From Promethearchaeota archaeon (GTDB taxonomy: Archaea; Asgardarchaeota; Lokiarchaeia; Sigyniarchaeales; SOKP01), in the NCBI GenBank assembly GCA_048940925.1, contig JBHLOC010000003.1, forward strand, positions 128,001 through 192,000: a DNA stretch of 64,000 nucleotides. The letters run 5' to 3'. This document shows positions 441 to 47,958 of the stretch, one piece after another (within the stretch, counting starts at the first letter, position 1; every line of letters starts with the position of its first letter). The notes below the pieces were generated by a model. The model saw only the letters and a list, made by a program, of their open reading frames with translations. It was not told the origin of the DNA and ran no database searches. The position numbers and the translations under genes were made by a program.

Positions 441-2846
441 TCAAATGAAGCATAATAAATCTTTCTGAATAGATTTTTTGTCATAATCTAAAGTCAGCAA
501 TTCCTCAAGTTCAGGGAATTCAAAAGGGAAAATGTTTTCAAAGGCTCTTTTTAGCAGTTCGACATATTTTCTTCTGTCATATTCATGCTTGTTATCATTA
601 TACAAATCTGAAAGGACAATCTTTTTCTCAGGAAAATCAGGATTGGCATCGGCGTTAAGAATGATATATCTCACACTTTTTCCAGCCGAAGCTACTATTC
701 CTGACCGCTCTAGTTGCTTTGCAGCAACAGCTTGATATGAGTTAACTTTGTATTGATTTGGTCTACGGGATATCCTTTGACGAATCGTAAGTTCCTCTCT
801 TGATATCTTTCCGGAATAGATTCTTTCTACATATTCATAGAGCTTTTTCTTAGCATCAGGTACTCTTTTGAGGAACTCTTCAACAGTTTCTGCTCCTTGA
901 AAACTGTCAATAAAGGCATACTGCGCATCTTTTACAATTTTTGGCATATCTCTACGCCTTACTTCGATCCCCCTGACTTTTGTTTCTCCATTACTCTTTA
1001 TCCCCCAGTAGTGACTGAGAGCAGGAACATCTGGCTCAGCCCTAGAAGGAAGAAAGACAATCACATTGTATCTTCCTTCCCAGTTCATGGGAATACTGGT
1101 GTGTTCAGTGATTTCATTCGCAATTTTTTTTGTTATTTCATCGAACTCTTTTGGAGCTCGGCTTTGTGTGTCCTTGAGCCATATCGAGTCTACAATTCCA
1201 TGAACTATTCGACACCCATGCTGTTCGGCTATTTCTGCAGCTCGCATTAGGAATTCACGTGCAAATGCACAGACCGTTTGATGTGCTTCTATCTTTCCAA
1301 AACGGGCGTTTTTAAATCCTAAATATCCAAAACTTACAACAAGTACCCATTTTAGTGCGGAGTCTGTGAACTTGTACCGAAGATCATCATGAGTTTTGTT
1401 GTATTCTTTATACTCAAGTCGTTTTCCTAAAGGCAGGCTAATCGATTTAGAAATAATGCCTTGTCTCTTGCTGCAAATATGGAAATTAAGTCCAGGCACC
1501 TTAATCCCAGTTCCATCATCGTTACAGCAGCTACAGTTGATGGTTTCAGAAGAGATATTGTATTTCGCCATCAGTGAAGGATACATTGAAGAAAAGTCAA
1601 GTTCTACCACTTGATCAAACACCCCAATTATTGGTTCAAAGATATGCCCTCCCCGATCGCCTCTAATTAAATCCATGCCATTTCTAAATCCCTCAGGACT
1701 TTTTTTGAAAGGAGGTACGAGATGATCAAGTTTGTAAGCATTGTAAAATTGAATGGATTGTAAAGCGCCTCCTATTGTAACTCTACATAACCTTTGCATA
1801 GGTATACGAGAAATACGAGCGACTTCAATCACCCCTGGGATATTACCGTCACTGAAATGTAGACTAGCGTAAGTTGCAGTATCTAGATGAAATCGCCCGG
1901 TGAAATACACCTGGGTTTTTGAGCGTCGGAAGATTATACCATATGACATATAATGGTCAGAACTTCCTGAAAGATCAAAAATGCAGTTTCTAAGTGGTGT
2001 TTTATTCCTTGAAAAAAAAAGATCCTTTGAAACACGATTCACAGATGCTCTGGCAGCCAGATATGGAAATAAAAACTCATCTCCATTATGAGTAAGAATA
2101 ATATCAGGATCAAGCCGTTCAATCACATTACTAATTTTTTTCAAAGTTTCTGCCTCATCTGCTTCGTCAATTAAAGTTTTTTGCTTCTTATACCCATCCG
2201 CTCGTGGCACGTTGTTTTCATCATTTTCCACGATGCTGACTTCGGCATATTCAAGAATGTCATTGAAATAGGGGCGTATTCCCTGCTGTCGTATTGTAAT
2301 GTCTAGCCAAACAGCCCTCAAGGGAGGTAAATTGTAGAATAGTTCTTCATTGTCATCTTTCAATTCCAACGAGACTAATTTCATCACTTCTTTATTTCTT
2401 TTCTTTGTTATCTCTGTTTTTACCTTGAAACTACAATAAGACATTGGAAATAAGTCATTTACGTAGAAATACATCTGGGAGAGAGGAAGATCAGTGTTAT
2501 ATAATGTAAAAAGTCCTATTTCATCGATTTCCTTAACTGTTTTTTTAAAAACTGAAGGTTTTACTACAGAAACACCAAATATTTTTGTTTTTTTGTGATC
2601 CTCGAGTTTTACATACTTTTCACAAATTCGCACATCTTTTATATTGTTATGTGACTTGAGAATTTGCTTCAACCTTTTAAAATCCTTACCAGTATGTTTT
2701 CTCGGGACAGCAAAGAATTCGGGACAAAATTCTTGAAAAACATTAATAACTTTTTGCTCCTTTATTGTTTTCACCCAAAGAATAACTCCTGTACTACAAG
2801 TAGAAACATCCAAAAGCCAGCCATCAAATTGCTCGTGATAATCCAA
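441..2846 (-). CDS. polB2: Family B DNA polymerase, PolB2 group (proofreading-deficient)
   Basis: Motif A DFSSMYPS, motif B KWVLVVSFGYLG, motif C altered to HGIVDS (PolB2 pattern). Exo I/II motifs are degenerate (LDITI, NGDEFL). C-terminal QKDLLCFI is PIP-like. Confidence 0.9.
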   Translation of the reverse strand: MDYHEQFDGWLLDVSTCSTGVILWVKTIKEQKVINVFQEFCPEFFAVPRKHTGKDFKRLKQILKSHNNIKDVRICEKYVKLEDHKKTKIFGVSVVKPSVFKKTVKEIDEIGLFTLYNTDLPLSQMYFYVNDLFPMSYCSFKVKTEITKKRNKEVMKLVSLELKDDNEELFYNLPPLRAVWLDITIRQQGIRPYFNDILEYAEVSIVENDENNVPRADGYKKQKTLIDEADEAETLKKISNVIERLDPDIILTHNGDEFLFPYLAARASVNRVSKDLFFSRNKTPLRNCIFDLSGSSDHYMSYGIIFRRSKTQVYFTGRFHLDTATYASLHFSDGNIPGVIEVARISRIPMQRLCRVTIGGALQSIQFYNAYKLDHLVPPFKKSPEGFRNGMDLIRGDRGGHIFEPIIGVFDQVVELDFSSMYPSLMAKYNISSETINCSCCNDDGTGIKVPGLNFHICSKRQGIISKSISLPLGKRLEYKEYNKTHDDLRYKFTDSALKWVLVVSFGYLGFKNARFGKIEAHQTVCAFAREFLMRAAEIAEQHGCRIVHGIVDSIWLKDTQSRAPKEFDEITKKIANEITEHTSIPMNWEGRYNVIVFLPSRAEPDVPALSHYWGIKSNGETKVRGIEVRRRDMPKIVKDAQYAFIDSFQGAETVEEFLKRVPDAKKKLYEYVERIYSGKISREELTIRQRISRRPNQYKVNSYQAVAAKQLERSGIVASAGKSVRYIILNADANPDFPEKKIVLSDLYNDNKHEYDRRKYVELLKRAFENIFPFEFPELEELLTLDYDKKSIQKDLLCFI

Positions 2847-2847
2847 T

Positions 2848-3132
2848 TTAATCTTTTCCTTTAATAGTTTCTTCTAATTCGTCTACCTTTTTCTCCAATA
2901 TCATAATCTTTTTCTCTTGCTCAATCGCAAAAGAAATAAAAAGAATTTCGGAAAGCATAGGACGAGCACTCAGGCTCCCCGCATCAGCATGATTTCGCGC
3001 AAAATTCATCAATCTGTCAAAAACTTTTTGTTCTTCTGGACGAAGTGCTCTTTTAAAATCTTTCCAACTTTCAATTTCGTGTTCCAACGCAGGTCTAAAA
3101 GAAGGAACTGTCCTACCCATAATAATAACCAC
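2848..3132 (-). CDS. Small PolB2-associated protein (arCOG07300-like)
   Basis: MGRTVPSFR...W..FKRALR.E...FDRL pattern of the small gene commonly found upstream of polB2. Its stop is 1 nt from the polB2 start. Confidence 0.8.
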   Translation of the reverse strand: MVIIMGRTVPSFRPALEHEIESWKDFKRALRPEEQKVFDRLMNFARNHADAGSLSARPMLSEILFISFAIEQEKKIMILEKKVDELEETIKGKD

Positions 3133-3164
3133 ATGAAGTAATTTTCTGAGAGATTTAAAAGAAA

Positions 3165-3184
3165 ATACATTGACAATTTTTCGA
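3165..3184 (-). promoter_or_regulatory. Putative regulator box upstream of the polB2 operon (sense TCGAAAAATTGTCAATGTAT)
   Basis: 16/20 identical to 11883..11902 at the same distance from the start codon, just upstream of a TATA-like TTTTAAAT (3153..3160). Confidence 0.6.
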
Positions 3185-3299
3185 TTTTTGTTTTGAAACT
3201 CAATTCTTTGAAAAATGCTTGTTATTGTCTATAAGCGGTATCAAATATTATAAAGCTATTTTACGAAATTTTTTAATTTCCTTTAATTTAATTAATATT

Positions 3300-5891
3300 A
3301 TGTTCATTTTTTTTGATAATTTAATTAGTTCCGAAGATAAGGAACAACAAGCATTTTTAATTCCAGAACCTCGCTACGTCAAATTGACAAATTTTAAAAA
3401 AATGAAGTTTAATGAACAGACAAAACTATTCACCAATTTGAAAGAAGAATATTCCTTTATAATTGAACAACTTCAAGAAAAGTTAGAATTTTTTGGATTG
3501 AATGCGAATTTAGAAACCCATAGAAGTCAGGAAATTAATGATTTTTCAGTTATTGAGTCATATTTAGAAGAAATAAAACACAAATTTCCAGACGATCTTT
3601 ATAATTTGATTAAAAGTGAAAAGAACTTTATTGAACAAGGATATGTTTTAGTTGCTGAAGATAATAGGGTTTTAATTGAAGGATCTACTCCTCAAGGTTT
3701 ATTCTATGGAATTCAAACCCTACTCCAATTATTGAACTCAAGTCAAAATAAGATATCATTAAGCGAATTAAAGATAATTGATTATCCTGTTTTAGAAATT
3801 AGGGGTGTTTCAGACGATATTTCTCGGGGACAAGCACCTACTATTGATAATTTAAAGAAATTTATAAAAGAACTAAGTCACTACAAGATAAATCAATATT
3901 ATCTGGTTTACATGCAAGATATGTTTAAATTTACAAATTATCCTAAAATTGGAAAAGATAGAGGGGCTTATTCAAAAGAAGATATAATAGAATTGCATAA
4001 ATATGCAAAAAATTTCTTTATTGAAATCATCCCTATTTTTCAGACTACAGGTCATTGGGATAACATTTTACACCATCCTGATTACTGGAACTATGGTGAG
4101 TTTCCTGGATCCAATAGTTTAAATATTTCTAATGAAAAAATTTATGAGCTTTTAGATGAAATGATTGGTGAATTAAGTGAGGCTTTTAAATCAGAGTACT
4201 TTCACATTGGTGCTGATGAGAGTTGGGATGTCGGAAAAGTAGCTTCAAAGAAGTATGTTGAAGATATTAGCATTGAAATTGCATACCTAAATCATTATAA
4301 GAGAGTCTATGATATTGTCAAGAAATATGGATATAAAAAAGTCATCATTTATCATGATATTCTTTATAAATATAAAGATATTCTTGAAGGATTACCAAAA
4401 GACATGATAATTATGTATTGGAACTATAAAACTCAACAAGTACATCCAATATTAAAAGAAATAAAAAATTATAATTTTCCTGTAATTGTTAGCCCCACAA
4501 TAATGGATTTTAATCGAATTTTTCCTTCAATCGATAAATATGAAAAGAATATCCTAAATTTAATTAAATATGGTCATGAAAACGGAGTTATTGGAGAGAT
4601 AACTTCAAGTTGGGGAGATTTTCATAACAAGGAAATCAGAGAAAACAGATTTTATGGTTTTATATTTTCTGCTATAGTAGGATGGAATCCTTTAAAAGAA
4701 ATTAACATAATATATTTTTGGAAATGTTTGTTTATTCACTTTTTCGGAATATTAGATAATAGACTAATTCAAATTTTCAGTTTTATCCGTTCACTCCAAG
4801 ATAAACGAAAATTGCATTTAAGAGACACAGCATATTATAATCATTTTTTTGCACATCCTTATGCTAAAAAAACTAAAAGATATAAAAAAAATATTAAAAT
4901 TTCGGGTTTTAAAAAATTAATAGAGGAATTGGATGAAATTATTAAGAAATGTGAAGAGTTAGAAAATATTGTTCTTAAAAATAAGATTAACATTATAAAC
5001 CTTGCCTTTATAACAAAACATATAAAATTTTATTGTAAAAAAAGAATAAACACAAAATCTTTAGTTGAGTATATTCCAGTTAAAGAAGTTTATACCAATT
5101 ATAAAATTGCTGAAATTCAAGAGTTGAAAAATGAATTAATTTTATTATTAGATGAATACGAACATCTTTGGATAAATTGTGCGAAAAAAGTAGGACTTGA
5201 AACAATAAAAAGGCAATATTTATGGTTAATAAAGTTTTACGATGTTAAAGTTGAACAACTAAAAAAGCACGTTAGATGGGAAAATCCTTATATCCCCAGC
5301 GAGTTGATATATTTAGATTGTGAAGGAATGCACAAGCTCCATACCACATTTTATAAGAAAATAATAAATATTGATGGAGAAATAGAACATGCCCATTTAC
5401 AAGTTATAGCTGGAACGTTTGCTAAAATTTTAATAAATAATTCAGAAGTAGGTCATATTATTACTCGACATTCCCTTAATTTTGTTGTATTAGAAAATAA
5501 TATTAAAATTTTTGATATAAAAGAGTATCTAAAACAAGGTGAGAATCTAATATTAATTGAAAATATAGACTATATTGGTGGTTTCTCTCCAATAAATATC
5601 TATGGTGAAATTAATTTAACTACAGAGGAACGACTAATAATTAAAACAGATAAAACTTGGACAGCTACAAGAAAATTAAATGGGGAATGGAAAGAAGTGA
5701 AAAGTTTTGGCAGACCTCCAAAGGCTACTGGTGGTTTATCTTATCCTGATTTTAAAAATTCTCTACCTTCAAAAGGAGATGAGGGAGTGGCTTTAATAAA
5801 TACAATTGCTAGTAGGAGAGAAAAAAAAAAAAAATTTTGGAGGTTAAAATTAGTATATAAACTTTTTAACAGATTCGATATTTTAGAATAA
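3300..5891 (+). CDS. Beta-N-acetylhexosaminidase, GH20 (GcnA/HexD-like) with extra C-terminal domain
   Basis: IPEP..., [22 protein letters not shown] and catalytic HIGADE. Start at ATG 3300 preferred over TTG 3219 because of BRE/TATA-like CGAAATTTTTTAAT at about 3264-3277. Confidence 0.85.
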
Positions 5892-5904
5892 TTATTTAAC
5901 AATT

Positions 5905-6066
5905 TCATCTTATATTCTGTTTTATTTCTTTTCTCTTCCCTTTACATTTAGGGCATATAATTTCATCAAAATCTTCTAAATCACTTCTATAAACCCAAAT
6001 TTTTCCATTACCTTGACATACCTTACATATTTTCTTATCTCCTTTTGGAAAAACATAATAATTTAT
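5905..6066 (-). CDS. Small (53 aa) DnaJ-type zinc-finger protein, not in the ORF track
   Basis: INYYVFPKGDKKICKVCQGNGKIWVYRSDLEDFDEIICPKCKGKRKEIKQNIR*: CxxCxGxG plus CxxCxG. SD-like GGAGAGGTGG upstream. No in-frame ATG/GTG/TTG start. Confidence 0.65.
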   Translation of the reverse strand: MNYYVFPKGDKKICKVCQGNGKIWVYRSDLEDFDEIICPKCKGKRKEIKQNIR

Positions 6067-6342
6067 CTTTTAAACCACCTCTCCTAAACTTAAGAAATAT
6101 AATATTTTATATTATCATTAAGTATTACAATTCTAAAATTCAACAATTTAAGGGTATTCTACCTATTTAAATGTTTTCATAAAGTTTGAAATTTATAAAA
6201 AAATTATGAATAGTTAAGTTCTATTAAACAGTAAAAAAGTGAATAAATTATTCCAATTTTTTCATTATTACCAATAAAAAGGAAAAGAACGAGAAATTTT
6301 TGAATTTTTTTTTGCAAATTTATAATTTTTTGTAAATGTTAA

Positions 6343-7461
6343 TCACAATTTTTCTAAAGCTTCTAAAATTTCATCCTTTATTCTACCTTCACTTTCATCA
6401 AGAAATTCTTGTAAAGCTTTTTTAGCTTTTGAGCCACCAATGCGACCTAAAGCCCAGGCACACATACACTTAATTCTTTCATCATTATTATCATTGAAAG
6501 CTTGGATAAGGTCTGGAATATACTTTTGATCTAAGCTATTTCCCATTGCTCTTGCCACATTCATTTTCCATCTCCAAAGATCTGTTAATGGCATATAAAA
6601 CATGTGTTGCCAAATTTTAGTTCTATAAAATTTCTTATCCATATGGAGCAAACTCCGAAGGTCAAAATCTTTTTCCTTAGCAACTACTCTTTTGTTAATA
6701 GGCAAATCTTGAGCTAACCATGGTTTGTTTCGGGGACATACATTTTGACAATGGTCACACCCATAAACCCATAATCCCATTGGTTCACGAAGTTCTCTGG
6801 GGGTAAGATCTTCCCCTAAATATGTGAGATACGAAATACATTTGCGTGGATCTATTTTACGTGGACCTTTTAAGGCTCCGGTTGGGCAAGCACCAATACA
6901 TGCATTTTTACACCATTTTGGACATCCTATATCGTAAGTAGGTTCATCGGGGATAAATTCATAGTCTACTACAATAGGTATAGGCAAAATCCAAGAACCC
7001 CCACGAGCTACTTTATGTGAATAAAGTAAACAATTTTTTCCAAAGTTCCCTAACCCCGCACGGGCAGCTGCAACTCGTTCAGGTAGATTGGGGAGTATGA
7101 CCGAACTAATTCCATTATCTCGTAAATATTCACGAAAAGCTTTTATCTTTAAATATGATCCATCTCGAGTCATACGATAATCATCTAAATAACAACGACC
7201 AAAATATCCTTCTAATGAAGGAGGAAATGCTTCGTTAAAATAAGTCTCAATAAGCACGATTATTGATTTAGCATTAGGGTACATCTTCTTCGGGTCAGTA
7301 CCACTCATAAGGTCGATACCAGATGATAATAACCATGCATATTCTTCTCGTCGTGATTGTAATATCTCTAATTGTGATTCAAAAGGTTCAGCACTCGTAA
7401 ATCCTATATCCGCAAATCCAAGATCATATGCCTTATCAATGATTTGGTTTTTAGAAAGCAT
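6343..7461 (-). CDS. Epoxyqueuosine reductase (QueG)-like cobalamin/4Fe-4S protein with C-terminal HEAT repeat
   Basis: AARAGLG.FGKN, C..C..ACPTGAL, CISYLT, GCDHCQNVCP.N and AWALGRIG. Confidence 0.8.
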   Translation of the reverse strand: MLSKNQIIDKAYDLGFADIGFTSAEPFESQLEILQSRREEYAWLLSSGIDLMSGTDPKKMYPNAKSIIVLIETYFNEAFPPSLEGYFGRCYLDDYRMTRDGSYLKIKAFREYLRDNGISSVILPNLPERVAAARAGLGNFGKNCLLYSHKVARGGSWILPIPIVVDYEFIPDEPTYDIGCPKWCKNACIGACPTGALKGPRKIDPRKCISYLTYLGEDLTPRELREPMGLWVYGCDHCQNVCPRNKPWLAQDLPINKRVVAKEKDFDLRSLLHMDKKFYRTKIWQHMFYMPLTDLWRWKMNVARAMGNSLDQKYIPDLIQAFNDNNDERIKCMCAWALGRIGGSKAKKALQEFLDESEGRIKDEILEALEKL

Positions 7462-7622
7462 AAATAAAATTATTTATAATTTTAATTTCTCTAAAAATAA
7501 GAATTAATATCAGAAATAATAATTGAACAAAAAATATTTTGATTTAAATTTTTAAGACTTTTATTTAAAAATTGGAAAGAATTAGAAAATAAGTTTAGAC
7601 GTTTTAAGAAAAGAAATCTCTT

Positions 7623-9680
7623 TTAAAATTGTGTTATTATAGCACAATGATCCGAGCTTATCGAGCAAAAAACCTCACTATTTTTTGGGTTTAAGTCAGG
7701 AGAACACATAATATAATCAATCCTTTTATGAGGATTATAATTGTCATCAAAGTCGCCTGTAAAACCAGGATCAGAATTTAGTAATCTATATGTGTCAGTA
7801 AAATTTAAGCTAGAGGTACTATTGATTAATAAATATTCTGTAGAATCGGGTTCAAGATTAAAATCACCCATCCATATTATTCTCTTGAAAGGTATTTCTT
7901 TCTCAATTTCATTAACAATGAAAGGGACTTGTACTAATCTGTCTTCTGAATTTGTTGATAAATGAGTGACAAATATAACCCAGATTGATGAATTTACTTG
8001 AATTTCAGCTCTTATTAAAGATCTTGGCCTTTCAGAAGGAATAGCTAGAGGTAAGCTAATGATTTTTGCTTCTAATATGGGATATTTGCTCAAAATAACA
8101 TCTCCATAATGTTTATAAAAAGTAAAGCCAAAAAAATAATACATATTAAGTTCATGGGCGATATATGATGGCATATCTATAAAAGAAGTTTTAAGTGCTC
8201 CTAAATCGACTTCATTTAGTCCTAATATGTCAGGATCATTTTCTTTGATATCTTGGATAAGACGATTAATCTGAAATGAGTCGTCAGCTCCGATAGCAGT
8301 ATGTATATTCCACATCATAAATTTAGGATTTGGGTTTTGAACAGGTGTAGATTTACGTTCTTGAACCAGAACTCCTATAAAAAAACCATAGATTATTAAA
8401 ACACATATAAGCATTATTCCCATGGTTTTATTCAAATTTTGAGAGTGCTCTTTCGGAGAAAGTGTTATTTTCTTAGTTTTTAATTCATAAATTGAAATTA
8501 CTAATACACCGACTACTATTTGAATTATTAGATTTGTCAATAATGACAAATATTCATACCATAGAATCTCTACATGAAGGATTATAAAAAACATATTTGT
8601 AAGAAAGAAGATTATTATTCCAATCAACAATTTTTTAGGGGAATCAAAGGTATAAAAATTAAATAAATACGATATATAAAATAGAATAGAAAAAACACTA
8701 ATTACTGTCATCAATGAAATATAAATTGAAGAAATTAAGGTAAGATCATTTTCAATAATGTAAAGCGCGAACACTGTTAAGATACAAGTAATTCCAATGA
8801 AAAAAATAACAATTTTCTTGACTAACTTTTGATTTAACGTAAATAAATACTTAAATATTATTATATAGCTCATAATTGCTGTAAGAAGTATCAATAAAAT
8901 ATAATATGTGAATCCATAAGTCGGCCATTGATTTAGGGAATCTGGGATTAAGTTGTTTATGCTCAGATTAATAATGTCATATGCTGAGAGTGCCATTGGA
9001 TTAAAGATCCACATAATTGAAAAAATAAATAGAATTCCCAAGATTATAAAGTGAAATAACGAGATGTTTGTTTTATCTGATTTAATAGGTTTTTTATCAA
9101 TATCAGAGATTAATTTCTCAAATCTATCAGGATAAAAAAGATAATTATTGATTACAAGTAATATTACCATAAAAATTAATATGGGAATTAATTTGCTGAC
9201 ATCTGAAGTTAGATTTGATGATATATTAATAGTTAAAAAGATAAATTGAATCCCCAATCCGATAATCACACTTCCTAAAAAGTGTGAATAATTTATGTAA
9301 GATTCACTTACTTCCATTAATAAAACAAAACCCATAAAGAAAATCAATATAGTAAATAGCATTATTAAATTAAGTACAAGAATTACACTGGGAGTAAGAA
9401 CAAACTGAGTACTTATTCGGACTCCAACAATAATGTAAGTTAAAATATACGGTTTATACTTCTTTTTAATTCTTGCTGACATAAAAAAGAAGTATTCAAA
9501 TATTATAAGCAGAATTGCAATTATTAATGTAGGTATTACAGTAATGATCTCTGAGAAGTTCATGAAAATGTAGGCATTAATATTTACTAGAACGTTATAA
9601 AAGCTTTCTATGAAAAGGTAAAAAATAATTCCAATAAGACAAATTGAACTGATCTTACCATATTTCTGCATTTTTCTCAA
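7623..9680 (-). CDS. Multi-pass membrane protein with C-terminal EEP (exonuclease/endonuclease/phosphatase) domain
   Basis: About 440 hydrophobic N-terminal residues, then WNIH, DILGLNEVD, THL, MGDFN, RIDYI and SDH. Confidence 0.85.
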   Translation of the reverse strand: MRKMQKYGKISSICLIGIIFYLFIESFYNVLVNINAYIFMNFSEIITVIPTLIIAILLIIFEYFFFMSARIKKKYKPYILTYIIVGVRISTQFVLTPSVILVLNLIMLFTILIFFMGFVLLMEVSESYINYSHFLGSVIIGLGIQFIFLTINISSNLTSDVSKLIPILIFMVILLVINNYLFYPDRFEKLISDIDKKPIKSDKTNISLFHFIILGILFIFSIMWIFNPMALSAYDIINLSINNLIPDSLNQWPTYGFTYYILLILLTAIMSYIIIFKYLFTLNQKLVKKIVIFFIGITCILTVFALYIIENDLTLISSIYISLMTVISVFSILFYISYLFNFYTFDSPKKLLIGIIIFFLTNMFFIILHVEILWYEYLSLLTNLIIQIVVGVLVISIYELKTKKITLSPKEHSQNLNKTMGIMLICVLIIYGFFIGVLVQERKSTPVQNPNPKFMMWNIHTAIGADDSFQINRLIQDIKENDPDILGLNEVDLGALKTSFIDMPSYIAHELNMYYFFGFTFYKHYGDVILSKYPILEAKIISLPLAIPSERPRSLIRAEIQVNSSIWVIFVTHLSTNSEDRLVQVPFIVNEIEKEIPFKRIIWMGDFNLEPDSTEYLLINSTSSLNFTDTYRLLNSDPGFTGDFDDNYNPHKRIDYIMCSPDLNPKNSEVFCSISSDHCAIITQF

Positions 9681-9847
9681 ATGAATTATCGAATTGATTA
9701 ATATTAATTCAATCTGAAGATTTATAATGGTTTAGCTAATTTTATTCAAAAAAAATTAGAAGCGTTGATATATTTTAAAACTACTAAAATCTGTATTCTT
9801 TTTGAAAAATAAAATTTTTTATGTTCATATTTTATTAGTTATTTATT

Positions 9848-10582
9848 ATGGTTGAATTAAATATACTGTTAAATTTCATCGGAATGATCTTTGAAATCTT
9901 TATAATGATTTTCGCTGCAGTTCTTCTAATACTTATATCAAAAAAATATTTAATTAAACGTCATAAACTCACACGATTGCTTCTATTAATTTTTATTAAT
10001 TATTTTATAGCAATTGTTTTTTCTTGGATCTCAAAAGTTTTTGTTGTTTCACAGTTAACTGTAGAACAAGATGGCTCAATAGGTGCTTGGATATATAATG
10101 TGATATCAGATTTTAGATTAAGTGAATTCTTTGTTGTTATTGCTATTTTTCTATCTTATATATTGAAGGTAAATGTTTTTGAAAAAGGATATAATACTAT
10201 ACAGCGATATGTGGTGATAATTTATGGTATTTTCTCAGGTTTTTATGTATTAATCATCTATGAAAGCGGTAATACTTTATTGGATGTTTTTGCGTTCTTA
10301 ATTGTATTTTTATATATGGTTATGGTTTATGCTCCCTTTTTACGAAGAGCAATAGAATCTTATCGAGCAGTAGATGAAAAGACATATAAACAAGCATTTT
10401 TATCATTAGCAATAATGTCAGTTAGTTTTATGTTGATATTTCTCAATTTTGCGACTGATCGAGCATTAATCTTCTTAGGTAGCCCGGGATTTACAGTGTT
10501 TTATTTCTTAGCCTGGAGTTGCGCAATAATTGGAATTTTTGGAGCATATTATGGGTATATTAGACCAAAAGCAAGTGAATAA
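9848..10582 (+). CDS. Seven-TM membrane protein (putative sensor/receptor)
   Basis: About seven hydrophobic segments in 244 aa, with no soluble domain. Confidence 0.7.
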   Translation: MVELNILLNFIGMIFEIFIMIFAAVLLILISKKYLIKRHKLTRLLLLIFINYFIAIVFSWISKVFVVSQLTVEQDGSIGAWIYNVISDFRLSEFFVVIAIFLSYILKVNVFEKGYNTIQRYVVIIYGIFSGFYVLIIYESGNTLLDVFAFLIVFLYMVMVYAPFLRRAIESYRAVDEKTYKQAFLSLAIMSVSFMLIFLNFATDRALIFLGSPGFTVFYFLAWSCAIIGIFGAYYGYIRPKASE

Positions 10583-10672
10583 TAAAATTAAATTTTTTAA
10601 AAACTAAACATTAAATAATTTTTATTTGTTTTTTCTTAATTATTTGTAAAGTCAATTGGAATATAATAAGCA

Positions 10673-11095
10673 GTGATACCTGTGGAAAAAATAATACAAG
10701 ATATTTGGATACTAAGTGATGCTGGCACTGTATTATATCACCGCGCTTCTGATAAGAAAGTAGATGATCAATTAATAGGGGCACTAATATCTGCATTGAA
10801 TCTGTTAGCAGAAGAATTAGAGCGCGGAGGTTTGTCTAGCTTCGAGTTACAAGATAAAAGATATATTATAATGAAACAGCATGGATTATCATTTATTGTA
10901 AATACTTCAAAAAAGGTTAAGGAAAAAAAGGTTAAAGAAGAGATGAGAAGTATCGTTAACAGATTCTTTGATATATATCCAAAAGAGATTTTTGAAAATT
11001 GGGATAATGATATAAGTATCTTTACTGACTTTGAAAAGCGTTTTGAAGATAATTTACAGGAAACTATAAAAAAATTTGAAAACGCCTTTTGGTGA
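10673..11095 (+). CDS. Longin/roadblock-like domain protein
   Basis: IWILSDAGTVLY...DDQLIGALISALNLLAEEL...LSSFEL pattern typical of Asgard longin-like proteins. Confidence 0.7.
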   Translation: MIPVEKIIQDIWILSDAGTVLYHRASDKKVDDQLIGALISALNLLAEELERGGLSSFELQDKRYIIMKQHGLSFIVNTSKKVKEKKVKEEMRSIVNRFFDIYPKEIFENWDNDISIFTDFEKRFEDNLQETIKKFENAFW

Positions 11096-11100
11096 TAAAT

Positions 11101-11850
11101 TTAAAACCATACATCGAGGGTCATATTTCTTAAAGGAACTTTCTTCTTTGGTTCACATGGTTTCCATTTTAATAATCGCTTTTCGGGCAAATAAGGATGC
11201 TGAACAAGCGTATATTCGACACATCGCTCGTCATCTTTTATCATTACTAACACACTTCCAAAATGGGAAAGGATTTTTCCACCTTTAGGTCTGAAATGCG
11301 AATATTCGTTTAAAGGTGCCGTTATAATAATTAGTGGGTTTGTTTTCCAAAGTATTTTTTTTATTCCATCTATTGCTCTTAGCAGGTCTTCAAAGGTCTG
11401 TTTTTCATAATTTTCAAATAAGGTAGTAATTCCAGAGATTAAGACTACTTTAATATCCTCTAGTTTGGAAAGTTTGTTTTCTAAAAGCTCAACCATTTGA
11501 TCCCAAGTAAAGGCTCTAGCAATTAGAATGTTCTCTAATACTTTTGTGGGTGATAAATTTTGTGAAACTGCAAATTTACTTATATTATAAGGATTAAATC
11601 GATTATTTGCATCAATGAAGGCAACTCTGACACCATCCCCGAACCCTCCATTACTAAAGGACTTTTGAACAATAACAGAAGTTGTAATTAAAATATTAGT
11701 GGATACCTTCTTATCTCCATAGAGTAAATACACTAAATCCCGGTGATAGCCCCCAGAAAGCAATTCATCTAGAGTCTTATCTCCACTTGAAATGAGTCGG
11801 AAATGATTATTCTTCTTGTAGACCTTAAATCCTGAATTAAACGACATCAT
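11101..11850 (-). CDS. RadA/Rad51-like paralogue, predicted inactive ATPase
   Basis: SSGDKTLDELLSGG, AFIDANNRFNP and ILIARAFTWDQ. Walker A replaced by LYGDKKVS and Walker B by VLISG. Start re-set to ATG 11850. C-terminal NMTLDVWF. Confidence 0.8.
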   Translation of the reverse strand: MMSFNSGFKVYKKNNHFRLISSGDKTLDELLSGGYHRDLVYLLYGDKKVSTNILITTSVIVQKSFSNGGFGDGVRVAFIDANNRFNPYNISKFAVSQNLSPTKVLENILIARAFTWDQMVELLENKLSKLEDIKVVLISGITTLFENYEKQTFEDLLRAIDGIKKILWKTNPLIIITAPLNEYSHFRPKGGKILSHFGSVLVMIKDDERCVEYTLVQHPYLPEKRLLKWKPCEPKKKVPLRNMTLDVWF

Positions 11851-11882
11851 ATGAAGTAACAATTCTTCAAAATAAAACAGAG

Positions 11883-11902
11883 ATACACCGACAATTTTCT
11901 GA
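11883..11902 (-). promoter_or_regulatory. Putative regulator box upstream of the RadA-like gene (sense TCAGAAAATTGTCGGTGTAT)
   Basis: Matches 3165..3184 at identical spacing. TATA-like TTTTATTT at 11870..11877. Confidence 0.6.
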
Positions 11903-12331
11903 AATACGTGCATTTTGTCTATAGTTTAGAAATTCTATTTCCTTCTTTAATAAAAAATGTTCTTTTAAAAGTAATATGTTTCTATAGGGATAGAGAGGGG
12001 AGAGTAAAAGTAAAAATGAATTATGTGTAATTCTAAATCAATCAGAAGTGTCCGACAAAATCCGAAAGACTTTTTTGTGTTAAATATAGTTTTTTTAATC
12101 TTTTATCTATCTGAATTAAATTAAATAATAAGTCATATAAGATAATGTATTATCAATTTTGAAAGTTTTAAAGTAAAAAAAATTAAAGTATTAAAATGTC
12201 ATATAAAGATAGATTTTAGAAGTAAAATTGGAACCCAAACATAAAGGGTTACATATCGAGAATTGGATAAACTTTCATATGAATTCGCTAATATGTTGAT
12301 TACACAATTCTTTATCTAATTATACAAGCAA

Positions 12332-47076: not shown

Positions 47077-47958
47077 TTAGATGATTACATTTAACTTAGT
47101 TTTTAACTCTTTATATCTAGACCTTAAGGTTACCTCAGTAACTCCTACAACATCTGAAATCTGTTCTTGAGTATAGCCACTATTTTTAATCTTACAGGCG
47201 AGATAAATTGCTCCAGCACATATTCCTTTTGGATCCTTTCCACTTATAGAATATTTTAAACTATAACTTTTTAAGATATTTACTGTTAATGTTTCTATTT
47301 CAGAATCCAATCCCAATTCCGTAATATAACGTGGAACTAAAGAAATTGGATTAGTAGATGTAGTTTTTAAGTTAAATTCTCTTACCAATACACTTAAGCT
47401 TCTTCTTATATCCTTTGCGTCAACAGAAGCTTCATCTAAAATTTCTTGAAGTGTTCTAGGAAATTTCTCCCTTCTACAAGCTAAATATAAACATGCCGCA
47501 ACCATAGCATTTATAGATCTACCTCGTAATAATTTCCTCTTAAATGCTTCAATATAAAGCCGCATCGCATCTTCCTTGATATGATTTGGTAAATTCATAT
47601 TGCTAGCAATTCTTTTTAATTCAGTAGAAGCAATTAATAAATTCCTTTTTTGCCAAGTTATTCTAGTATTCCATTTAGCTGCTCTTTTTAAATCAGGATT
47701 ACTAATTTTTTTCTTGTCTATCACTGTACTTAAACCCATGTCGGGTAATAAAATTGAAATTGGGGATCCTGTTTGCTCCCTTTTGGTTCTCTCCTGATTT
47801 GTATATGCCCTTTTTCCACTATGAGAAGTATCAACAATTCGATCATTAATAATTAATCCACATTGACCACAAACTGTCTCCCCTTTTTCCTCTATGAAAA
47901 GGATTGATCCTCCACATTCTGGACAAAAATTTTTATATTTAATTATATCTGAAATCAT
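47077..47958 (-). CDS. tfb: Transcription initiation factor IIB
   Basis: CPECG...CGQCG Zn ribbon, LRGRS, GKDPKG..A.AIY and GVTEVTLRSRYKEL. Confidence 0.95.
   Translation of the reverse strand: MISDIIKYKNFCPECGGSILFIEEKGETVCGQCGLIINDRIVDTSHSGKRAYTNQERTKREQTGSPISILLPDMGLSTVIDKKKISNPDLKRAAKWNTRITWQKRNLLIASTELKRIASNMNLPNHIKEDAMRLYIEAFKRKLLRGRSINAMVAACLYLACRREKFPRTLQEILDEASVDAKDIRRSLSVLVREFNLKTTSTNPISLVPRYITELGLDSEIETLTVNILKSYSLKYSISGKDPKGICAGAIYLACKIKNSGYTQEQISDVVGVTEVTLRSRYKELKTKLNVII

Follow-up and report, generated by a model that had tools for sequence, protein, structure and literature searches.

Two promoters of a split PolB2 mutasome operon share a candidate regulatory box in a lokiarchaeal genus

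The genes of the PolB2 mutasome lie in two transcription units in a Promethearchaeota archaeon of the class Lokiarchaeia (GenBank assembly GCA_048940925.1), and the stretches immediately upstream of these units are probably the core promoters of iRadA and of PPB2-PolB2, furnished with a common box for one regulator. The two stretches, at 3133-3184 and 11851-11902, were read in a window of 64,000 nucleotides (nt), positions 128,001 to 192,000 on the forward strand of contig JBHLOC010000003.1; coordinates refer to this window unless a contig designation precedes them, and the genome, 4.8 Mb at 29.6% GC, is denoted G000. That the split mutasome operon is under shared control is well supported by the sequence comparisons described below. 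In Sulfolobus, the PolB2 complex is required for damage-induced mutagenesis. The mutasome described by Timinskas et al. in 2025 comprises PolB2, PPB2 (arCOG07300) and iRadA (PMC11791011), and the promoters of its genes are described neither there nor by Makarova et al. in 2014 (PMC4104785).

Two promoters with a common layout

Both stretches read on the minus strand, lie 8.7 kb apart, and, with the RNA starts as predicted, would fit the geometry of archaeal promoters, in which the TATA box sits about 25 bp upstream of the RNA start with the B recognition element (BRE) adjoining. In the PPB2-PolB2 promoter (3133-3184), the box TCGAAAAATTGTCAATGTAT (3165-3184) is followed by the TATA box TTTTAAAT (3153-3160) and by TTACTTCAT (3133-3141), with the RNA start predicted at about 3129-3132. 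The iRadA promoter (11851-11902) repeats this order, with the box TCAGAAAATTGTCGGTGTAT at 11883-11902, the TATA box TTTTATTTT at 11869-11877 and TTACTTCAT at 11851-11859; the heptamer TTGTCGG is embedded in its box at 11888-11894 (minus strand), and the predicted iRadA mRNA is leaderless or nearly so. Common to both is the frame tCAGAAAATT-N5-TGTAT, placed 4-5 bp upstream of a TATA box that itself lies about 25 bp before the predicted RNA start. The box is asymmetric and two-part, centred at about -45 and reaching to about -54. Among the orthologues, a conserved TTTTAWTT stands 23-26 bp before the iRadA ATG and likewise before a conserved GG in the PPB2 leaders, both being predicted starts. 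No local BRE consensus emerged from the tRNA promoters of the genome (12 tRNAs called).

The original prediction had set the start codons at GTG 3132 and ATG 11850; orthologue conservation moves them to ATG 3120 and ATG 11847. The string ATGGGNAGR is conserved in 29/29 PPB2 orthologues, which fixes the PPB2 start at ATG 3120, and TTACTTCAT therefore ends 12 nt 5' of the start codon. For iRadA, the second ATG is taken as the start because the first codon varies between species, reading ATG, ATA, ACA, GTG or TTG.

The gapless match of the two stretches at 33 of 52 positions, from which the original prediction departed, was confirmed on direct reading, as was its 39-nt spacing: AAAATTGTC starts 39 nt before TTACTTCAT in both promoters. 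The word AAAATTGTCNNTGTAT occurs twice in the genome, exactly in these two promoters. A scan of 9.6 million genome positions with the iRadA 52-mer returned seven matches of at least 33/52, the 52-mer itself and the PPB2 site included. When a matrix was built from iRadA promoters only, the PPB2 site ranked 5th among these positions, and when it was built only from the PPB2 promoters of other species, the iRadA site ranked 8th-43rd. The uniqueness of the word, the ranks under cross-trained matrices and the low match count make a chance match unlikely, and it was rejected. Also rejected are the att sites of an inserted island, as the copies are 63% alike and each is kept before its gene in all species.

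Conservation and exclusivity of the box

Footprints were drawn from the DNA upstream of 29 orthologues each of PPB2 and iRadA (protein identity 76-96%). The iRadA promoters hold an almost invariant block of 44 nt, extending from ATTTCAGAAAATTGTCGGTGTAT to TGTTTTATTTTGAAGAAT, in the 29 species, the iRadA proteins of which are 76-82% identical. The conserved columns of the PPB2 promoter are AAATcAGAAAATT, TGTATT, TTTTAAT, GAAA.ACTT.C and, some 25 nt past the TATA box, a GG. Conservation reaches 90-100% in the columns of the box and the TATA box and falls to 10-50% in the flanks. Where columns are at least 80% conserved in both promoter families, 24/34 agree in register, as compared to 24-53% for shifted registers. 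In 25 genomes compared one by one, 26-34 of the 52 positions (mean 30) are identical between the PPB2 promoter and the iRadA promoter; the similarity first seen in G000 is therefore not special to it. Across 54 genomes of the genus, the iRadA 16-mer AAAATTGTCGGYGTAT occurs exactly once in 45, with a single match of the reversed control over all genomes. Among the nine genomes without it, four have no iRadA (G023, G029, G032, G034), three have iRadA cut at a contig end (G001, G019, G031), and the other two are G070, with a one-base box variant, and G066. The conservation upstream of orthologues in related genomes that the original prediction had named as its check thus holds across the genus for both promoters.

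Exclusivity of the common frame was queried at the level of the genome and of the genus. A matrix of the common 20 nt scored the two sites at 32.7 and 22.1, and the next site, at 17.2, fell within the reversed-genome null; upon inclusion of the TATA box, no further genome site rose above that null. A whole-genome nhmmer search with the combined profile recovered the two promoters only, and intergenic matches followed by a gene were few and weak in this genome. The pattern AGAAAAYT-N5-TGYAT, searched over the 54 genomes, returned recurrent extra words, and 20/20 of those fetched lay inside long conserved coding frames. These scans indicate that the common frame is private to the two mutasome promoters. 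Judged from sequence, the box is thus a private putative control site of the two units and not part of a broad SOS-like regulon. The earlier proposal of a split operon with one upstream box on both halves is borne out, with the box conserved genus-wide in both promoters and absent elsewhere. Its extension to an SOS-box equivalent of Lokiarchaeia is not: the frame stands before no other repair gene, and neither the matrix scan of the genome nor the pattern search over the genus turned up a third promoter.

The mutasome genes and the split operon

PolB2 (441-2846, minus strand) is an 801-residue B-family polymerase (Pfam DNA_pol_B and exo domains, the latter exo1) whose polymerase and exonuclease motifs depart from the canonical form: HGIVDSI takes the place of YxDTDS in motif C, Exo I is LDIT, and motif A is DFSSMYPS. 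Its TTG start follows the stop of PPB2 (2848-3120, minus strand) by 1 nt. PPB2 is a small partner of the arCOG07300 type, 90 residues long and without a match in a Pfam search. Its N-terminus, MGRTVPSF, begins with the MGR(T) arm that is kept in all orthologues; the MGRT motif has been described for the N-terminus of PPB2, a small helical protein (PMC11791011). iRadA (11101-11847, minus strand) is a RadA/Rad51 core (Pfam Rad51) in which the ATPase motifs are not working: in alignment to 1pzn, GEFGSGKT is replaced by GDK.KVST (Walker A) and IVDS by LISG (Walker B), and the N-terminal HhH domain is absent. Pfam, motif reading, the 1pzn alignment and the published description (PMC11791011) uphold the original assignment of a PolB2, a small partner and an inactive RadA, and by these sequence features the three proteins are identified as the known PolB2 mutasome, an error-prone polymerase complex. 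The C-terminal tails of PolB2 (QKDLLCFI, 441-464, minus strand) and iRadA (MTLDVWF, 11101-11127, minus strand) resemble PCNA-binding motifs, which are rarely present in both proteins (PMC11791011).

The likeness to the known operon iRadA-PPB2-PolB2 (PMC4104785, PMC11791011) covers the same three proteins, their order and orientation, the MGRT start of PPB2, the dead iRadA ATPase motifs and the altered PolB2 catalytic motifs. The genes here differ in being non-contiguous, with a split of about 8 kb in G000. Wherever a genome of the genus has both units on a single contig, they share a strand and iRadA is 0.5-8 kb upstream of PPB2-PolB2; each unit has its own sequence-predicted promoter. Published mutasome arrangements allow for interspersed genes (PMC11791011). 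Class members outside the genus were also compared (14 genomes of a second family, f2, seven of the sister order and a few more); in the other families the three genes mostly stand next to one another, 80-260 nt apart, and in several f2 genomes iRadA and PPB2 are far apart. An ancestral iRadA-PPB2-PolB2 operon was probably opened in the studied lineage by inserted cargo, leaving both halves with the same promoter type.

The cargo between the units (3219-11095, mixed strands, by Pfam) consists of genes for a GH20 protein (+), a Fer4_16/HEAT protein (-), an EEP-domain membrane protein (-), a 244-residue membrane protein (+) and a longin-like protein (+). Among other species, G006 has a gap of about 0.5 kb with no gene, G004 carries a different gene, and G036 carries the same pair of membrane-protein and longin-like genes as G000. 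The gap (3219-11095; L007, L014, L022) is an insertion hot spot with species-dependent cargo, in which the genes for the 244-residue membrane protein and the longin-like protein recur. In G005, a second, partial iRadA C-terminus (residues 182-249, 71% identical) lies between iRadA and PPB2 (G005:C29:23598-23801).

A second word inside the iRadA box

Within the common frame, N5 of the iRadA promoter is an invariant GTCGG, giving TTGTCGG. The PPB2 promoters are devoid of this word, their N5 reading TGTAT, TGTAA, GGTAT and the like, with GTCAA or GCCAA only in the clade of the studied genome; the GTC common to both promoters in G000 is a lineage feature, and the PPB2 promoter of most species has no GTC. 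Among 126 copies of TTGTCGG in G000, 13 are non-coding, and such copies sit before the genes for a histone, an RHH_1 protein, NrdD, Orc1, two paralogous 52-residue proteins, and iRadA. At nrdD the word is kept in 6/6 genomes amid variable surrounding DNA. At orc1 it is kept in 6/10 genomes and the other 4/10 carry one mismatch; at the RHH gene it is kept in 3/5, with one mismatch in the other two (TCGACAA). At the histone gene it is exact in G000 only, four other species having TTAGTCGG followed by a conserved GAAAAATT, and the 52-residue protein genes carry variants of it in orthologous promoters. G029, a genome without the mutasome, has retained the word as well.

This recurrence before nrdD, orc1, the RHH gene, the histone gene and the 52-residue protein genes suggests that iRadA probably receives a second input. 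By its conservation, TTGTCGG looks like a wider input to iRadA that is probably common to replication-type genes. Treating it as a separate word explains why N5 is frozen in iRadA promoters only, and implies that the box as originally drawn fuses two elements. Its presence before a small RHH_1 gene and replication-type genes is reminiscent of the RHH cell-cycle regulators aCcr1/CdrS and their boxes (bioRxiv 10.1101/2022.07.07.499082). A copy before the RHH_1 gene would suit an autoregulated small regulator with few targets, and the RHH_1 protein, encoded at G000 C45:37178-37381, is a candidate binder.

Several of the genes preceded by TTGTCGG have conserved upstream DNA of their own. The two paralogous 52-residue protein genes, without Pfam match (G000 C77:126915-127073 and C90:6373-6531; also L153, L154, L175-L179), bear the word about 200 nt upstream and share a leader of about 110 nt that is conserved between paralogues and species. 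The C77 copy is downstream of PolB2, 1.4 kb outside the window at its start; G016 and G024 likewise have a copy a few kb downstream of PolB2. At nrdD (L152, G000 C40:247300-249900), a block of about 75 nt, 120-200 nt upstream and adjoining a conserved CCGACAAAAT, is near-invariant in six species; it could be the promoter of the divergent gene or an RNA element. The intergenic region upstream of orc1, a universal gene (G000 C40:223080-223500; L180-L188), is strongly conserved over ten species and is probably an origin or promoter region; no canonical origin recognition box (ORB) repeats were found in it.

A distal block and traces beyond the genus

Upstream of iRadA, a second conserved block of 65 nt (11956-12021, minus strand) lies 60-130 nt upstream of the box and consists of a T-rich part, then CCCCTCTCT, then CTTTTAAAAG. 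The 29 species have conserved it, and the genome holds a single copy (E 1.7e-12); in three further genera (g9, g16, g10), weak matches (E 0.014 to 3) precede iRadA in the corresponding position and orientation. The layout resembles the promoter of the 52-residue protein gene family, and no RNA fold was found for the block. An ORB-like reading, by comparison with GTTCCAGTGGAAAC-AAA-GGGGG (PMC1868953), was rejected, as the resemblance sits in the columns that are least conserved and the copy of the studied genome does not show it.

Farther afield, an AAATT-GTCG core was seen by eye upstream of iRadA in g9 (AAGAAATTTGTCGCC, three species), g8, g11 and g17, with about 0.06 TGTCG expected per upstream window; this excess of GTCG cores in four other genera is suggestive only.

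One regulator or other explanations

Taken together, a model for the control of the split mutasome emerges. Most likely, one sequence-specific DNA-binding protein would read the box and set the output of both units, and through such a common regulator the subunits of one complex would be made together. Sites just upstream of the BRE and TATA box are the typical position of archaeal activators, and the factor probably acts as an activator; both its binding and activation rather than repression are inferred.

Several observations weigh against this model. The iRadA block is invariant over 44 nt, which is more than is usual for the site of one factor. An nhmmer search with one promoter family barely detects the other (E = 9), so the similarity of the promoters is modest and carried by few common columns. 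No regulator gene was recognized at the locus by Pfam, and no Orc1/Cdc6 paralogue, of the three present, co-varies with the mutasome in its occurrence; Orc1/Cdc6 as the dedicated regulator was rejected on this lack of co-variation and on the absence of box-like repeats next to the orc1 genes. The whole box is not detectable outside the genus by nhmmer (E >0.3 at 20 loci from 16 genera and 18 more promoters), and the Lokiarchaeia-wide box originally envisaged is not supported. For TTGTCGG, the non-coding share is about twice that of words of the same composition, ranking 39th of 140, and the word is not clearly enriched by count; its case therefore rests on conservation and on a coherent gene set.

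The main rival, unlikely but the strongest of those considered, holds that the common columns define a promoter class read by a TFB (or TBP) paralogue, TGTAT and the following bases forming a special BRE, with co-regulation following the level of the paralogue. The genome has about 12 TFB paralogues, two full TBPs and two half TBP-like genes, with one TFB gene inside the window (C77:175098-175646, window about 47098-47646, minus strand), and the conserved block is continuous through the BRE/TATA region. The rival has a precedent in TFB paralogues that drive particular sets of promoters (bioRxiv 10.64898/2026.09.06.749720). However, a general-factor paralogue would be expected to serve many more than two promoters per genome, none of the paralogues was linked to the mutasome, and AGAAAATT, about 20 bp 5' of the TATA box, is farther away than TFB-BRE contacts usually extend (textbook knowledge). 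Independent of this question, the general transcription factor gene set of G000 is unusually large.

Somewhat less probable is that the likeness is merely inherited, the PPB2 promoter being a copy of the iRadA promoter left by the operon split, with no common specific regulator. The split is genus-wide, and the likeness does span the whole promoter, including TTTG on either side of the TATA box, GAA and TACTT.C. A plain promoter, however, needs no conserved 20-nt element upstream of the BRE, and over about 29 species both families have kept the same upstream columns fixed, next to flanks that change.

That the box is the operator of a broad, SOS-like DNA-damage regulon of Lokiarchaeia is improbable. 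The notion takes its appeal from the targets, a translesion polymerase complex that is damage-induced in Sulfolobales (PMC11791011), from GAAAAT, which on the reverse strand reads ATTTTC and fits the ANTTTC bound by Orc1-2 (PMC6061795), and from the recurrence of TTGTCGG at the nrdD, orc1, histone and RHH genes. Yet the common frame occurs at no other gene in genome or genus and could not be detected in other genera, and at 30% GC the hexamer ATTTTC is frequent. TTGTCGG, moreover, is not found in PPB2 promoters, and the genes of its wider set resemble a replication or cell-cycle group more than a repair group.

We reject as very improbable that the stretch is coding, with the N-terminus of iRadA extended to ATG 11913, or that it forms a leader RNA with structure: although the frame is open upstream in most species (265-290 versus about 249 residues) and a longer RNA could arise from another TATA-like element, within the distal block, there is a stop just upstream in eight species and, in G002, between block and start, the block has no third-position variation even though the iRadA proteins are only 76-82% identical, RNAalifold gave no consensus structure (0 to -2.5 kcal/mol), and Rfam returned nothing above threshold.

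Comparison with known damage-response sites

The private box of the two mutasome promoters, read as the site of a single factor, invites comparison with two known systems. In Sulfolobales, the DNA-damage-responsive element, ANTTTC within AATAGTTTCRGWDTACTCWS, is bound by Orc1-2 (PMC6061795); like the box here it is short and asymmetric, lies in the promoter region -23 to -55 from the ATG and has polB2 (dpo2) genes among its targets. It is an activating site close to the core promoter (PMC6061795), and the similarly placed box may likewise be activating. ATTTTC occurs on the opposite strand of the box at about -45 and fits ANTTTC, which, for a hexamer common in AT-rich DNA, is weak evidence. 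The two differ in that the rest of the 20-nt consensus is unmatched, the box is found at two promoters versus dozens, no Orc1/Cdc6 paralogue here follows the mutasome, and the function of the box is predicted. All three mutasome genes are damage-induced in Sulfolobales, and orc1/cdc6 genes are enriched in the neighbourhood of the mutasome genes (PMC11791011); by analogy with Sulfolobales, both units here would be induced by DNA damage.

The SOS boxes of bacterial LexA are palindromes that overlap and repress the promoter and serve a large regulon, with umuDC (Pol V) among the targets. The likeness lies in one operator type placed over the subunit genes of an error-prone polymerase. In contrast to the palindromic operator of many genes, the box has no dyad symmetry, its place is 5' of the TATA box, and it belongs to two promoters only, with two sites per genome.

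Implications

To our knowledge, and in the literature searched, Asgard archaea have no experimentally defined transcription-factor site or stress regulon. It is possible, and we put this forward tentatively, that the private box and TTGTCGG are the first readable pieces of an Asgard cis-regulatory code, in which a dedicated factor would turn on the error-prone polymerase complex as a whole and another would couple iRadA to nrdD, orc1, the histone and the RHH gene, amounting to a replication-stress or DNA-damage circuit distinct from both LexA and Sulfolobus Orc1-2. The case suggests how a split operon may keep its subunits coordinated. A 20-nt box that is defined to the base, conserved in about 45 species and tied to the mutasome complex is a concrete probe for capture of the regulator, and the two promoters offer a read-out for whether relatives of the eukaryotic ancestor have a DNA-damage response.

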